From assembly GCA_963674735.2 (NCBI GenBank), contig CAXXQS010000002.1, forward strand, positions 1,056,001-1,120,000: a stretch of DNA of 64,000 bases. The letters run 5' to 3'. Below are positions 9,956 through 19,839 of this stretch, in pieces. Under the pieces are notes generated by a model, which was not told where the DNA came from, ran no database searches, and worked only from the letters and a program-made list of their open reading frames with translations. The position numbers and the translations under genes are program-made. Numbering within the stretch: position 1 is the stretch's first letter; each line of letters begins with the position of its first letter. The stretch comes from Myxococcota bacterium (GTDB taxonomy: Bacteria > Myxococcota_A > SURF-8).

Positions 9956-10700
9956 GAAGGCTCCCTCGATACACCGTTTTCCAAACGGCTACTCGGGATA
10001 AGCGAGTTATCATTCATTTATTGGCCAAGGTTGCGCCATCCCCGAACGATGGGCAACAAGTTGCCCCTCCTACTATTCTTGAGAAAGTTTGCGTGATCGC
10101 CCCTCTTCCACCCCGTGTTCGCCGACGGGTCCGGGCGGCGGAGAGAGCGCGAGGACTGTCCGAGCCGGACGGCGTCCGGCGAGTTCCGCAGCGCCCGCCG
10201 CTTGGGCGCGGGGACGTTGGAAAACGGCCGAGGCGAACCCCGGGCGTCCTTTCTTTCGGTTCCCTTTCTTTGGACGCGCAAAGAAAGGGGACAAAAAAAC
10301 GATAAGCCGCACTAGCGCAAAGCCGGGAGCCCGTCGGGAGATGCGCGCCAGCTGGCGGAAGGCTCCCTCGATACACCGTTTTCCAAACGGCTACTCGGGA
10401 TAAGCGAGTTATCATTCATTTATTGGCCAAGGTTGCGCCATCCCCGAACGATGGGCAACAAGTTGCCCCTCCTACTATTCTTGAGAAAGTTTGCGTGATC
10501 GCCCCTCTTCCACCCCGTGTTCGCCGACGGGTCCGGGCGGCGGAGAGAGCGCGAGGACTGTCCGAGCCGGACGGCGTCCGGCGAGTTCCGCAGCGCCCGC
10601 CGCTTGGGCGCGGGGACGTTGGAAAACGGCCGAGGCGAACCCCGGGCGTCCTTTCTTTCGGTTCCCTTTCTTTGGACGCGCAAAGAAAGGGGACAAAAAA
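9956..10700. repeat. Direct duplication of a 343-bp composite palindromic unit (period 402 bp)
   Basis: 9956-10298 and 10358-10700 read as identical by eye; degenerate GCCGGGAGCCCGTC flank motifs near 9848, 10322 and 10725. Confidence 0.92.
10048..10073 (-). repeat. GTAG-type REP element (second copy at 10450-10475)
   Basis: Reverse complement is GTAG-GAGGGGCAACTTGTTGCCCATC, one base different from the REP at 18259-18284. Confidence 0.75.
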
Positions 10701-14865: not shown

Positions 14866-16869
14866 ATGGCCAATGAAACCTTCAAGCTGACCTCGCGCTA
14901 CCGACCGACCGGCGATCAGCCGCAGGCTATCGATGCGCTGACCGAAGGCATCGAGCGCGGCGACAAACACCAGGTGCTGTTGGGCGTGACCGGCTCGGGC
15001 AAAACCTTCACCATGGCCAACGTCATTGCCCGCCTCAACCGTCCGGCGCTTGTTCTGGCTCACAACAAAACGCTCGCGGGCCAGCTCTATGCCGAATTCA
15101 AAGAGCTGTTCCCTGAAAACGCGGTGGAGTACTTCGTCAGTTATTACGATTACTACCAGCCCGAAGCCTACCTTCCCAGCTCGGATACCCACATCGACAA
15201 AGAAGCCACCATCAACGACGAGATCGACAAAATGCGCCTGTCGGCCACCCGCTCGTTGTTGGAACGCAACGACGTGGTGATCGTCTCGTCGGTCTCCTGC
15301 ATCTACGGCTTGGGTTCCCCCGATGCCTTTGAAGGTCTGGTTGTCTTTTTAAACGAGGGGCAGGAGGTTTCCCGCGATGCGGTCATCCGCCAACTGGTGG
15401 AGATCCAGTACGAGCGCCACGACATGGATTTCCATCGCGGCACCTTTCGCGTGCGCGGCGACCGGCTGGATATCTTTCCGGCCTACGAAAACGAACGGGC
15501 CATCCGCGTCGAGTTCTGGGGAGACGAAGTGGCGGAGATCAGCGAAATCGAGCCCCTGCGCGGAACGACCCTGCGCAAACTGATCAAATGCGCCATCTAT
15601 CCGGCCAGCCACTATGTCACCACCCTGCAGCGCCGCCAGAACGCCATCCGCGCCATCCGCGACGAACTGCGCGAGACGATTCCGTTTTTCCGCAAACAGG
15701 AAAAATTAATCGAGGCCCAGCGCATCGAACAGCGCACCCAGTTCGACCTCGAAATGCTGCAGCAAATGGGCTATTGCAACGGCATCGAAAATTACTCGCG
15801 CCACCTCACCGGACGCGGGCCCGGCGATCCGCCCCCCACCCTGCTGGATTTCTTTCCCGAACCCTGGCTGCTGTTCGTGGATGAATCGCACGTGAGCATT
15901 CCGCAGGTGGGCGGCATGTATCGCGGCGACCGTTCGCGCAAGCAAAACCTGGTGGACTTCGGTTTCCGTCTGCCTTCGGCGCTCGACAATCGTCCGCTGA
16001 AATTCGAGGAGTTCGAGGCGCGCCTCAACCAGGTCGTCTATGTATCGGCCACCCCGGCCAACTACGAGTTGGAGAAAACCGAGGGCGTCTTCATCGAACA
16101 GGTCATCCGCCCCACCGGCCTGGTCGATCCGACATTGGAAATCCGCCCGGCCGGGCAGCAGGTGGACGACTTGCTGGAGGAAATCCGCCTGCGGGTGGAA
16201 CGCAAGGAGCGCGTGTTGGTCACCACGCTGACCAAGCGCATGGCCGAGGAATTGACCGACTACTACACCGACCTGAAGGTGCGCGTGAAGTATCTTCACT
16301 CCGACATCGACACCTTGGATCGCATGAAGATCATTCGCGATCTGCGGCTCGGCAAGTTTGACGTGCTGGTCGGCATCAACTTGCTGCGTGAAGGCCTCGA
16401 CATTCCCGAAGTGTCGCTGGTGGCCATTCTCGATGCCGACAAGGAAGGCTTTTTGCGTTCCGAGCGGTCGCTGATTCAGACCATCGGGCGGGCGGCGCGC
16501 CATGTAAGCGGAACGGCCATCCTATACGCCGACCGGATCACCGATTCGATGAAGCGCGCCATCGACGAAACCGACCGCCGCCGCAAAAAGCAGCTTGCGT
16601 ACAATCAGGCGCACGGCATCACGCCGCGCTCGATCGTCAAGGCGGTGTCGGAGGGCGGCATCTACGCCGAGGGCGATTACACCGTGGATCGGCGCTTGCC
16701 TAAAAATGTGGCCGCCAAAGAGATGGGGCCCGAAGAACGGCGTCAGAAGATCAAGAAACTCGAAAAAGACATGCTGCGCGCCGCCGAACGGCTGGACTTC
16801 GAAAAAGCCGCCGCCTTGCGCGATCAGCTTCTGGAACTCAAAAAACGCGACCTGCTGCCGGAGCGCTGA
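14866..16869 (+). CDS. uvrB: Excinuclease ABC subunit B
   Basis: [40 protein letters not shown]-terminal FEKAAALRD. Confidence 0.98.
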
Positions 16870-17058
16870 GGCGGCATCTCCGGCTCACACCATCCCGTTC
16901 CATTCCTTGATTTGTTGGCAGATTTCAGGTGAGTCGAAGTAATTTCTCAGCCGGCATTATTTCATATCAAACGGATGCCATCGTCTCACAAACCACGTTC
17001 GGGAGGCTGTGTAAACTCTTTGATACACACAGTCAGCCAGTAGCGACTGTTATCGGTG

Positions 17059-17994
17059 TCAAGCGAAATTCGGGTTCCAGGCTTCGTTTTTCCGCATCAT
17101 CGTGTTGAGAATGAGGACCAATTTTCGCATGCAGGCCACCACCGCCGTCATCTTCGGTTTGCCGCGTCCGACCAGCCGCTGGTAGTGTCCGCGAATCACC
17201 GGGTTGTGTTGAATCGCCACCAGCGTCGGCATGTAGAGCGCCGTGCGCAGGCGATGACGACCGCCGCCGGTCATGCGTTTACCCCGAAACGTTCCGCTGT
17301 CCCGATTCATGGGCGCCACGCCGATCAACGCCGCGATCTGCCGCCGGTTGTAGATCCCCAGCTCCGGCAGATCCGTCACCAGAAGATTCGCCGTGCACGC
17401 GCCGACGCCCGGCATCGTTTGGAGCCGCGCGGCCCGGTCGCTGCGCTCCCGATCCGATGCAATGGCCGCCGCGATGGCCCGATCCAGCCGCTCGATTTCC
17501 CGTTCGATCACCTCCAGAATGCGGTGCAGGCTTTGTCCGATCGTCCGATCGCCCACGTGTTCGGTGCGGTTTTTCTCCATCGTGCGCATGGCGACCAGCT
17601 GCCGCCTCCGTGAAGACAGGGCTTTTAACAGGAGGGCGGTTTCGCCGAGCGTTTCGTTCGGTGCGGGACGCATGGCGGCTGCGTAGCGTGCGATGATGCC
17701 CGCATCGAGTCGATCCGTTTTCGCCATCACGCCGACGGCGCGGGCATAATCCCGGATGCGCCGGGGATTGACCACCGCCACCGGCCAACCCGCTTTCTGA
17801 AGACGTTTGCACAGCTCCCGTTCGTAGCCGCCGGTGGCTTCCATCACGACGCCCTCCACCTCGATCCGCTTCAACGAACGGACGAAGCGTGTCATGCCGG
17901 CTTTGGTGTAAGCGTAGCGGACGCACGTGCTTTCGCCGTCGACGGCGACATCGAAAACGGCTTTGCTGACGTCGATCCCGATCCATTTCTTCAT
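17059..17994 (-). CDS. IS110-family DEDD recombinase/transposase
   Basis: GIDVSK, MEATGGY, KTDRLDA (DEDD); C-terminal PGVG..GVAP..DSG..GGR..LRTALYM..MRKL with the conserved SG serine. Confidence 0.96.
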   Translation of the reverse strand: MKKWIGIDVSKAVFDVAVDGESTCVRYAYTKAGMTRFVRSLKRIEVEGVVMEATGGYERELCKRLQKAGWPVAVVNPRRIRDYARAVGVMAKTDRLDAGIIARYAAAMRPAPNETLGETALLLKALSSRRRQLVAMRTMEKNRTEHVGDRTIGQSLHRILEVIEREIERLDRAIAAAIASDRERSDRAARLQTMPGVGACTANLLVTDLPELGIYNRRQIAALIGVAPMNRDSGTFRGKRMTGGGRHRLRTALYMPTLVAIQHNPVIRGHYQRLVGRGKPKMTAVVACMRKLVLILNTMMRKNEAWNPNFA

Positions 17995-17999
17995 GGCGC

Positions 18000-18203
18000 A
18001 CCCTTCCTTGCCAATACGGGCTCATTTCGATTACAATGGCCCCTGCGACTGTTCGGGTTTTCCCGGACGAAACGGACGGCGGATCCGGCTACAAAACGGG
18101 CTCATCAGGCCCCAGGATGGGACGATCTCGCCGCCCACCACGGCCTCCCGCTTGCTACGGGAGGTCGTTTCATCTTATCATCACAAACGATGACAGTCGC
18201 TTG
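18000..18203 (-). ncRNA. Predicted IS110 bridge RNA (ends approximate)
   Basis: Non-coding left end carries, in order, CCCATCCT, GTAG, ACAGTCGC and GCAAG, matching target-left, target-right, donor-left and donor-right of this insertion. Confidence 0.82.
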
Positions 18204-18219
18204 AAAGGGATAATACAAG

Positions 18220-18284
18220 GATGGGCAACTTGTTGCCCATCTTCTACACTTGAATCGCGATGGGCAACAAGTTGCCCATCCTAC
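18220..18284. repeat. Inverted REP doublet; first REP split by the IS110
   Basis: GATGGGCAACTTGTTGCCCATC (18220-18241, its GTAG left at 17040-17043), 17-nt spacer, then GATGGGCAACAAGTTGCCCATCCTAC (18259-18284). Confidence 0.85.
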
Positions 18285-18300
18285 TCCAGCTACTCCAGTT

Positions 18301-18981
18301 TTATTCCTGCAATGAATTGCTAAACGTATTGTAAGGCTCGTAAACGGTCCGGCAACCGGTGAAGACGGCCTCCATGGCGTCGTCGTCTTCGGGAAAGGCG
18401 AATTCGGGGAGGCAGTGCGTGATCGGCGGGATGAAGGCGCGGATACACGCGCGCAGATCGGTATGGGTGTCGCATGCTTGGTCCGTTACCTCGTGCGCCA
18501 GGGCATCGTCGATCGTCGCGGCGGTCCAGGTCGGGAAGGCGCTGGGTGGGTTGATCATATAACCGTAAGGCAACTCGGCCCATCCGGTAACGCGGGTGTA
18601 TTCGGAGTTCGCGTTGCCGTCGAACAGACCGTATTCGGGACCCAACCACGCATACTTGAAGGCGGCGGTAGGCTGAGAAGTCGATACATCAGCGCGGTGG
18701 CTTTCGCACTGCACGGCTTTTCCACCCGCTTCGCTGGGGGCGAATCGCACCCAGGCCGCCTGACAAAAAACGCCTTCGCAACCCGAGTCGGCGCTTTCAC
18801 AGGCTGCGATCCATCCGTCAAACTCGCTTTCCGAATCCGTCGCGACACCCGAACTCGCCTGCCAACAGCGCGGCTCGCAAGCGGCATCCCACCCCGAATC
18901 GTCGCGGCTCGATCCGCAAGCGCTGATCAAGGCGATCCAAAGGCCGATGACGACCGACAACCACAGCTGTTTGATGAACAT
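18301..18981 (-). CDS. Hypothetical Cys-containing lipoprotein
   Basis: Hydrophobic signal peptide with ISAC lipobox; AAGGAG RBS. Confidence 0.65.
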   Translation of the reverse strand: MFIKQLWLSVVIGLWIALISACGSSRDDSGWDAACEPRCWQASSGVATDSESEFDGWIAACESADSGCEGVFCQAAWVRFAPSEAGGKAVQCESHRADVSTSQPTAAFKYAWLGPEYGLFDGNANSEYTRVTGWAELPYGYMINPPSAFPTWTAATIDDALAHEVTDQACDTHTDLRACIRAFIPPITHCLPEFAFPEDDDAMEAVFTGCRTVYEPYNTFSNSLQE

Positions 18982-19839
18982 CAGCAGGCTCCTTTAATAT
19001 TCATCTCACTTTTTCCCAAAACAGGTCGGGTGGTTTTTTACCTGACCATGCACAATGAATTATTATCATACCATGTAACCTCAATTTATAAAACGATTGT
19101 ATACCGGTCTGGCGATTCCCGCCTGAAAACACTGCCCCTCACCTGCGCAACCTGCCGAGATTCCACACGATATTCCTGATTTTACCCTCCCTTTTCGGGC
19201 GCAGGTCGGCGTCATTCGGCCGGAATGGGAAAAGACGCCTGATATCATGAAGATAAGAGGGCATCCCTTGAATCGCATTAGTGTACTATATTCACAGTAT
19301 GACATCGGGCCTCTTTTTTCGCCGCCTCCGTCTTGCCGAAACGCCTGACTGCGGCTCTTTTCAATTCGACTCAAAACGCGCCAAGCCCCCTGTTGACGGG
19401 GTGAAATCGATTTGCGCATGCCCGACGACGCGGCAGGGAAACGCGCGCAGCGACTCTGCAAGCCGCCGTCTTCCGGCTCCACGTGTGACGTATTACGGCA
19501 ATCCCGGTTTTCCCATATGATTCGCTGCAGGACCCCCGATACGACGGCGAAAAACCCAATGATTTCGCGAAAGGCCTAAATATGGCGGCGCAAAACCGCG
19601 CAAGCGGCGCATCGGACGCATTCAACGCATCGAGCCGGATAGGCCCAGCCGAGAGGCGTTTCGGCTCTGCCGGGCGATTTGGGTCGTTTCGGCAGGTTTC
19701 GCTTGTCGCGGCAAGACGACCCATCGACGCATTCAGCGCAGGGGTGGCCTTGGCTCCCGCGAGTCGCTATTTGAGGGTTGATCGGTTTAAGCCGGTCGCG
19801 CGGACGGTCGCGCGCGGGAGTCTCGGCGAGTCGAGACGT

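Follow-up and report, generated by a model that had tools for sequence, protein, structure and literature searches.

A multi-copy IS110-group element in the REP units of a Myxococcota genome, probably a bridge-recombinase system built like IS621

Bridge RNAs are predicted for most catalogued IS110 elements (PMC11208160) and are mined from 181,180 recombinase-adjacent intergenic sequences (10.64898/2026.10.21.760802), and thousands of bridge-recombinase orthologues have been catalogued (PMC11208160; 10.64898/2026.10.21.760802). The member with which the present locus is mainly compared is IS621, for which a CT core, the target ATCAGGCCTAC, the order of the guides and the targeting of repetitive extragenic palindromic (REP) units have been described (PMC11208160); REP targeting by IS110 members has long been known (Tobes & Pareja 2006 and Choi et al. 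2003, as cited in PMC11208160). The subject of this study is an element in a stretch of 64,000 nucleotides, called the window throughout, from a Myxococcota bacterium (assembly GCA_963674735.2, contig CAXXQS010000002.1, positions 1,056,001 to 1,120,000). It occupies 1174 bp on the minus strand (window positions 18217–17044) with a CT dinucleotide on either side, and it is a complete IS110-group insertion sequence that very probably works like IS621 and is active at present. The probability that it is an IS110 bridge-recombinase element of functional type, with the tail of the host's REP units as its programmed target, is put at about 0.9. A preliminary description, made from the letters of the window, had read it as a bridge recombinase with the IS621 architecture, a reading that is supported by the domains and catalytic residues of the protein, by the covariation of the RNA and by the covariation of its guides with the flanking DNA.

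Copies, boundaries and target sites

A BLAST search of the host genome (5.26 Mb, three contigs) returned eight copies of the element, each 100% identical over 1174/1174 bases. In 8/8 copies the identity breaks off precisely at the CT junctions, with ...GATGGGCAACAAGTTGCCCATC-CT as the left and CT-AC as the right flank, beyond which the sequence is unrelated. Because the identity of the eight copies stops at these junctions, the element's ends and its target are set by copy comparison and not by eye. The left junction reads GCCCATC-CT|TGTATTATCC, with the CT core dinucleotide that is common to target and donor at 18219–18218 and the first element base at 18217, and the right junction reads ACAGTCG|CT-ACTGG, with the last element base at 17044 (the element ending in ...GATAACAGTCG), the second CT at 17043–17042 and AC at 17041–17040, both CT dinucleotides being present in 8/8 copies. 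The preliminary description had proposed GCCCATC-CT-ACTGG as the empty target and ACAGTCG-CT-TGTAT as the circular donor junction, and the eight identical copies confirm these ends; all eight also share ends and target, so that the opposite outcome it had named, copies with different ends or unrelated targets, is absent. Between the junctions the element consists of a left end of 223 nt (18217–17995), an open reading frame (ORF) and a right end of 15 nt (17058–17044). It shows the marks of the IS110 group, namely no long terminal inverted repeats, the same short CT core at both junctions and site-specific insertion (8/8 copies).

Logan contigs from three public sequencing runs of one study break at the same junctions as the genomic copies. 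A 1202-nt unitig spans 17040–18241 at a word depth of 79–91 as compared to 6–13 for the flanking contigs, a depth that does not equal copy number. The contigs of the three runs are without sequence variants of the element. In one of the three runs (X3) the element unitig is split at 17425–17454 and an extra 60-nt contig occurs at lower depth, possibly representing a variant copy. The absence of any difference across 8 × 1174 bp argues for a recent spread. An alternative reading holds that the copies are inert relics which were multiplied by duplication of REP-containing segments or by gene conversion instead of recent transposition. It can draw on two pairs of copies that share one flank over at least 50 nt (to the right of C1:316357 and C1:2102450 and to the left of C2:305930 and C1:2611656), and on the fact that neither circle nor empty-site joints occur in the contigs. 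However, the other flank is unrelated in each pair, the remaining four copies have only the REP in common, identity stops exactly at the CT cores in every copy, the ORF is uninterrupted and retains every catalytic residue, and a recent spread is what the complete identity of the copies points to, which together make relics a very improbable explanation.

The insertion site is CCCATC-CT-AC for all eight copies, each time within a REP unit's tail. The occupied unit in the window, GATGGGCAAC-AA-GTTGCCCATC (18220–18241, minus strand), forms a hairpin with 10-bp arms, and its last six bases (CCCATC, 18225–18220) are the left target. The right target AC (17040–17041, minus strand), which with the core makes up the CTAC that the right target guide reads, is found in 8/8 copies and is followed by T in 7/8. 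The uninterrupted site would read GCCCATCCTAC. A search of the whole genome that allowed up to four substitutions identified 37 units of this REP family, which is characterized by the 10-bp-arm hairpin with the asymmetric tail CCTAC (overlaps collapsed). Seventeen of them carry the intact 10-mer CCCATCCTAC and are empty, eight are occupied, and 12 have an imperfect tail, reading CCCCTCCTAC in five cases, and are all empty. Occupancy is thus 8/25 for units with a perfect 10-mer and 0/12 for imperfect ones (p = 0.028 for all eight falling among the perfect units), a contrast built on small numbers. Over the whole genome the 10-mer occurs unoccupied 17 times against about 12 expected from composition, and 16 of these occurrences stand in the 13-nt REP context, for which 0.2 would be expected. 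None of the 162 genome-wide 10-mers with one substitution carries a copy of the element.

Within the window an empty partner REP unit in inverted orientation (18259–18284, plus strand; C2:1074259, 0 substitutions), which carries the perfect target 10-mer, lies about 40 bp from the occupied unit. Such an inverted partner with an intact 10-mer, likewise empty and about 40–50 bp away, is present at five of the eight insertion sites (besides the window at C1:44575, C1:316282, C1:2611581 and C2:305980), and there is no REP doublet in which both units are occupied. Two more units of the same family lie in the window near 10048 and 10450 on the plus strand (C2:1066048 and C2:1066450), both of them empty and both with the tail CCCCTCCTAC, one base off the target. 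As for the genomic surroundings, the element sits between the 3' ends of two convergent genes, a 667-aa ORF at 14866–16869 (plus strand) that appears UvrB-like by eye and a 226-aa ORF at 18301–18981 (minus strand) with a lipoprotein-like signal sequence, also judged by eye.

Recombinase, bridge RNA and guides across relatives

The recombinase gene (17059–17994, minus strand) encodes a protein of 311 aa with the two domains of IS110 recombinases, an N-terminal DEDD RuvC-like domain (PF01548 at 3e-22, 79.5 bits with a cut-off of 29) and a C-terminal Tnp domain (PF02371 at 8.3e-19, 68.2 bits with a cut-off of 21.3). PF01548 is found nowhere else in the genome beyond the eight copies. Sequence matches to proteins of solved structure cover residues 4–300, with ISCro4 at 3.2e-37 and IS621 at 1.3e-34. 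In an alignment to 8wt6 the residues D8, E52, D94, D97, S233 and G234 correspond to D11, E60, D102, D105, S241 and G242 of IS621, which are named as catalytic or loop-stabilising (PMC11208158), the columns having been counted by hand and a numbering offset of +2 for the 328-residue chain having been assumed from chain length. All five of the D, E, D, D and S residues of IS621 are therefore matched, and all six positions are invariant in an alignment of 25 relatives. The nearest protein outside the genome is 64% identical (among 5.8 billion clusters), and relatives of about 311 aa number in the thousands, 7955 of 8000 scored candidates having E ≤ 0.001.

In keeping with a long left and a short right end, the RNA lies in the left end, where the RNA model described below matches 18139–17998, directly upstream of the ORF. 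The read-out of the minus strand confirmed four guide segments exactly where the preliminary description had placed them, namely CCCATCCT at 18121–18114, GTAG at 18092–18089, ACAGTCGC at 18052–18045 and CCGTATTGGCAAG at 18019–18007. The predicted bridge RNA, all parts of which are on the minus strand, begins with a 5' stem-loop (18140–18168) that appears in single-sequence folds and is replaced in relatives by a hairpin of different sequence in the same place. It is followed by a target-binding loop module (18074–18136), which has an outer stem of 8 + 4 bp formed by GGGCGGCG-GAUC and GAUC-CGCCGUCC, and which contains the left target guide CCCAUCCU (18121–18114), a short inner hairpin as a cap, the right target guide GUAG (18092–18089) and the handshake bases CC (18088–18087). 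The donor-binding loop module (18000–18058) has the stem ACCC/GGGU, the left donor guide ACAGUCGC (18052–18045) and an inner hairpin, and its 3' side carries the split right donor guide AU-[UG]-GCAAG (18015–18007) and the handshake bases GA (18006–18005), in a register that was compared with the description of the IS621 structure. The target guides agree with the target in 8/8 bases for CCCAUCCU and 4/4 for GUAG. In the donor loop, ACAGUCGC equals the tip of the right end plus C, and AU..GCAAG complements CTTG.AT of the left end, so that the second loop fits the joined ends of the element. An extended right target guide was considered and rejected, as GUAG has UUUU on its 5' side and the target goes on with T in 7/8 copies.

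The 223-nt left end folds with z = −4.1, a value that owes much to pairing between the leader and the donor guide, and in this fold CCCAUCCU and GUAG face each other in one internal loop; a fold of the last 177 nt likewise puts the two on opposite sides of one internal loop. For comparison across relatives, orthologues were taken from six of 61 host-relative genomes including the host itself (among them G008, with eight copies and 62% identity, G001, G004 and G009), with 10 loci from named genome records, and 80 metagenome-contig loci were kept out of 489 relatives. An RNAalifold consensus of 30 orthologues aligned with MAFFT consists of exactly two stem-loops with internal loops in which all four guides are unpaired, and compensatory changes occur in 18 of its 23 predicted pairs. 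The placement of the guides in internal loops rather than in stems, on which the preliminary description had depended, therefore holds for the target guides in single-sequence folds and in the consensus, and for the donor guides in the consensus. A covariance model built from the clade (R1) found the RNA in 89 of 99 loci, with 91 matches in total and every one of them on the strand of the recombinase. Except in the partial locus L040, the full-length matches sit just upstream of the recombinase gene, and two matches are cut-off second ones downstream of it (in L046 and L087). In the model alignment of 86 distinct rows 96.4% of cells are paired versus 64.6% after shuffling and at most 54.1% with partners slid, the covariation score is 0.823 versus 0.231 with 0/500 shuffles as high, and changes on both sides are seen in 24/24 pairs; this alignment is fitted to the model, which favours pairing, and the independent MAFFT and RNAalifold result agrees with it. 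Covariation thus backs a 5' stem-loop and, after it, two stem-loops with internal loops.

R1 also matches the left end of locus L120 with 41 bits, the recombinase of which matches IS621 at 8.8e-76, so that by R1 the RNA of this clade and the IS621-like RNA form one family. The comparison with covariance models that the preliminary description had suggested thereby came out in its favour, as the clade model finds the same RNA upstream of the recombinase in relatives, L120 among them. In the host genome R1 matches only the eight element places, and there are no orphan RNA copies without a recombinase. A scan of 16500–19000 with Rfam 15 (E up to 10) gave no match above any gathering score and no bridge-RNA family. 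It returned microRNA models that match the REP hairpins and, in antisense, a weak match to sX15, the one sub-threshold match that recurs. In three related loci (L031:1300–2600, L087:1482–1529 and L046:3802–3918) the element is trailed by a further, partial copy of the left end or of its RNA, suggesting tandem or nested insertions.

Whether guides and targets change together was examined in 87 usable rows, with boundaries fixed without reference to the target loop: the left boundary was the C[TC]TGT motif nearest to the RNA and the right boundary was the donor-loop 7-mer found after the ORF. The left target guide agrees with the left flank (7 nt plus core) at a mean of 6.85/9 compared to 4.64 ± 0.14 for permuted pairs (66 distinct pairs, 0/2000), and the right target guide agrees with the reverse-complemented right flank (core plus 4 nt) at 5.26/6 compared to 3.66 ± 0.10 (72 pairs, 0/2000); as the relatives are non-independent, these counts should not be taken as true probabilities. 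In the close clade an IS621-style left guide of 9 nt starts with a fixed U, which mismatches the target in 19/20 rows, so the effective left guide has 8 nt and the specified target is a 10-mer. Individual relatives illustrate the agreement. In G008, whose recombinase is 62% identical, the loop is CCCGACCU and three of the four copies whose flanks were read show GCCCGAC-CT-AC, L077 combines the loop CCUGCCCU and UCAG with the target CCTGCCCT and CTGA, and in L101, L105, L098 and L106 right guides of 6–7 nt fit their own right flanks.

In IS621 the right guides are followed by handshake bases, which pair, once the strands have been exchanged, with position 7 of the other DNA (PMC11208158). In the present element GUAG is followed by C, with G at donor position 7, and CAAG is followed by GA, with C and T at target positions 7 and 6. 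Among relatives, 74 of 77 distinct cases show pairing between donor position 7 and the base that follows the right target guide (C:G 54, A:T 15, T:A 4 and T:G 1), and 56 of 66 show it between target position 7 and the base that follows the right donor guide. The covariation of guide loops with flanks and that of the handshake bases stand established alongside the anatomy of the element, its copy number, the identity of its target and the structure of its RNA.

Granting family membership, one could still suppose that the target is mainly picked by protein recognition of the REP hairpin structure and that the RNA match is secondary or due to shared ancestry. The left target does form the 3' arm of a 10-bp hairpin that is perfect, 23 of the family's 68 distinct left flanks have a perfect 7-nt inverted repeat whose end lies no more than 2 nt from the core, compared to 0.18% in shuffles, and in ISPpu10 a target stem-loop has been reported as a second specificity determinant (10.64898/2026.03.19.712850). 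Yet the loop follows the flank base for base in relatives whose hairpins differ, a perfect hairpin is absent from 45 of the 68 flanks, and REP units with one base changed in the 10-mer keep the hairpin and are occupied in 0/12 cases. Choice by the hairpin in the main is therefore considered improbable, with the proviso that recognition of a hairpin and of the RNA match are not mutually exclusive.

A separate observation concerns the Rfam family sX15 (RF02234), a small RNA of Xanthomonas. Its model matches below threshold (23–40 bits with a gathering score of 55) in the window and in four of 20 related loci, always opposite to the strand of the bridge RNA (18008–18140 on the plus strand; L032, L105, L045 and L068; L148:1896–2025 on the minus strand). 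Conversely, R1 has a full-length match on the minus strand of plasmid pXCV183 (record positions 116395–116524, 57.5 bits, E = 2.5e-15). This match runs antisense to sX15 as published (116378–116536, plus strand) and sense to asX7 (PMC3300014). Judged by these matches, sX15 looks like a transcript antisense to an IS110-type bridge RNA. Downstream of the R1 match on pXCV183 there is no IS110 recombinase gene, and this RNA copy is therefore an orphan. A literature search found no paper linking sX15 with IS110.

Junction promoter, leader and proposed mechanism

When the ends of the element are joined, they would form a sigma-70-type promoter, TTGACA-17 nt-TATTAT, the two boxes of which hold their positions in relatives. 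The −35 box TTGACA lies in the right end (17057–17062, minus strand) and overlaps the TGA stop codon; relatives have TTGA(C/T)(A/T) at a fixed position, each of its first four letters being kept in 46–50 of 59 junctions. The −10 box TATTAT lies in the left end (18210–18215, minus strand), 17 nt from the −35 box once the element is circularised, and TAT..T is kept in 44–59 of the 59 junctions. The ATA...TAT sub-terminal triplets that flank the donor are conserved in relatives as well.

In the scheme given next, the chemistry and the circular intermediate, the ends of the transcript and activity at the present day are inferred from IS621. The 311-aa recombinase with its RuvC-like DEDD domain and serine Tnp domain would act with a bridge RNA of about 200 nt from the left end. 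The first loop of this RNA would read CCCATC-CT-AC, with the 8 nt of CCCAUCCU on the bottom strand and the 4 nt of GUAG on the top strand, and the second loop would read the joined ends ACAGTCG-CT-TGTAT by means of ACAGUCGC and the split guide AU..GCAAG. On excision the right end would be joined to the left, and this would create the TTGACA-17-TATTAT promoter, which would drive the RNA and boost its output. As in IS621, the circular form would be the donor, the RNA would bridge target and donor in a tetrameric complex, and serine 233 would cleave beside the CT cores. Recombination at the cores would then put the circle into the REP tail. For IS621 itself the excision route and the question of a double- or single-stranded circle are still debated (PMC13626964; 10.64898/2026.08.31.748434).

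The start of the recombinase gene overlaps with the RNA. A Shine-Dalgarno-like sequence, AAGGAAGGG (18001–18009, minus strand), stands 6 nt before the ATG and forms the 3' strand of the donor-binding loop, comprising the tail of the right donor guide, the handshake bases and the closing stem; it is conserved, and in 26 close relatives the median distance from the end of the RNA model to the start codon is 3 nt. By its position and sequence, AAGGAAGGG likely doubles as the ribosome-binding site. Upstream, the leader carries GCGACTGT (18193–18200, minus strand), which is reverse-complementary to both the left donor guide and the tip of the right end and is paired with the donor guide in the 223-nt fold. 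It occurs at the same position with 8/8 bases here and in G004 and with 7/8 in G001, and it is part of a 9-nt sub-terminal inverted repeat reminiscent of IS1111. Family-wide this leader anti-guide is not above shuffles and is confined to the nearest relatives.

These features could be taken to mean that the structured left end is chiefly a translational leader and that the guide matches are a by-product of sub-terminal repeats, for which the position of AAGGAAGGG just before the ATG and the reverse complement of the left donor guide in the leader can be adduced. Such a reading leaves both the covariation of target loop and flank and the handshake pairings unexplained, and a role as leader is in any case compatible with a guide role and not an alternative to it; as an account of the left end in its own right it is hardly credible. 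On the understanding that the RNA is a bridge RNA, the overlap of AAGGAAGGG, the complementarity of GCGACTGT and the targets in hairpin arms led us to a tentative proposal for the 311-aa clade. Bridge RNA and recombinase message might be a single transcript that forms a feedback switch, in which folding of the loop or binding of the recombinase would shut down translation and load the protein in cis, with the leader masking the donor guide until then. We regard this switch as rather unlikely. A coupling of the guide RNA to translation is not described for IS621 in the accessible parts of the literature examined (PMC11208160; PMC11208158), and a targeted literature search likewise yielded no treatment of the point.

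Several points weigh against the reading of the element as an active bridge-recombinase system programmed for REP tails. The contigs of the three runs contain no circle junction and no empty-site joint, being of a kind that would rarely show such joints, nothing dynamic was observed, and among the sequencing runs listed none is on record as RNA. The 177-nt RNA folds no better than shuffles (z = −0.76, 46/200 shuffles as good), and its fold pairs four bases of the left donor guide ACAGUCGC with the region of the right donor guide; in the 223-nt fold ACAGUCGC is sequestered by the leader. Since the fold energy of the 177-nt RNA is non-significant, the structural case rests on covariation and not on energy. 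In single-copy metagenome contigs the left boundaries set by the motif rule are wrong in some rows (e.g. L086), which lowers the cognate score, and to this are added the dependence among relatives and the small numbers of the REP occupancy contrast mentioned above.

Comparison with known systems

The element adds a natural and internally consistent example of a bridge recombinase from a host other than E. coli and from a large clade whose recombinases are short. Its target and donor, the four guides and the two handshake positions can all be taken straight from the genome, and the REP units of the host provide a built-in specificity read-out (8/25 perfect tails occupied versus 0/12 imperfect ones), which makes the element a reasonable candidate for orthologue screens and a useful teaching case for annotation. 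It leaves existing knowledge unchanged, bridge RNAs having been catalogued by the thousand since 2024. The preliminary description had suggested a possible new programmable-recombinase orthologue in a distant host. The first part is true and carries little weight given the thousands already catalogued, and of the second it stands that the host is not E. coli, a DNA search of 5,426 E. coli genomes having given no match to the element. Going by the 64% identity of the nearest protein, the element is a distinct insertion sequence, which the orthologue tables of PMC11208160 (Supplementary Data 2, Table 5) may already list, be it the element or its clade. The 311-aa clade is populous and, as far as the literature was examined, uncharacterised. 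Two aspects might be worth a small study, namely the stretch common to donor-binding loop and ribosome-binding site and the antisense relation to sX15.

The likeness to IS621, which for the RNA was drawn through the descriptions in the papers and through IS621-like loci such as L120, extends over protein, RNA and target. Both recombinases have the same two domains with five aligned catalytic residues, and both RNAs come from the left end with a 5' stem-loop, a target-binding loop and a donor-binding loop in this order. The CT core and a 4-nt right target guide GUAG that reads CTAC are shared, as are the handshake bases, the promoter at the circle junction and the short ATA/TAT sub-terminal repeat (reported in PMC11208160), and the target lies in the ..CCTAC tail of a REP hairpin, as in E. 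coli REPs (PMC11208160). In the IS621 structure, nine bases of the right donor guide pair discontiguously with seven donor bases, two being flipped out and one forming a G:T wobble (PMC11208158), and AUUGGCAAG (18015–18007) fits CT-TGTAT in the same register, with CAAG on CTTG, a G:T wobble, UG skipped and AU on AT. The preliminary description, which had the CT core, guide order and REP targeting of IS621 right (PMC11208160), had also given a similar donor for it, which is borne out for donor positions 6–14, implied as ..ATCTTGTAT (PMC11208158).

In contrast, the proteins have about 100 of 297 aligned residues identical (by eye), or about one third, and differ in length, with 311 versus 326 aa. 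The left target is CCCATC here and ATCAGGC in IS621, with 8 versus 9 matching guide bases, and the left donor is ACAGTCG here whereas IS621 has ..AT at positions 6–7, the handshake base being altered to match. Moreover, the RNA module of the present element ends 3 nt before the ATG and its leader is longer.

Among the other known systems, the ISCro4 transposase (PDB 9t56, known by its PDB title) is the best match of solved structure, at 3.2e-37 over residues 4–300. ISPpu10 and ISPpu9 of Pseudomonas putida resemble the element, by description, as multi-copy IS110 elements in REP or stem-loop intergenic repeats (10.64898/2026.03.19.712850; PMC12288879); ISPpu9 is reported to have orphan RNA copies, of which this genome contains none. 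With the IS1111 group the element shares a DEDD recombinase and sub-terminal inverted repeats, here a 9-nt inverted copy of the right-end tip at positions 17–25 of the left end. Assignment to that group was considered and rejected, as it calls for an RNA in a long right end (PMC11208160) and for sub-terminal inverted repeats of 7–17 bp, whereas here the right end has 15 nt, the RNA lies in the left end and the 9-nt copy is not conserved family-wide. By all features that can be tested in sequence, the element is thus one of the IS110 group and not of the IS1111 group.

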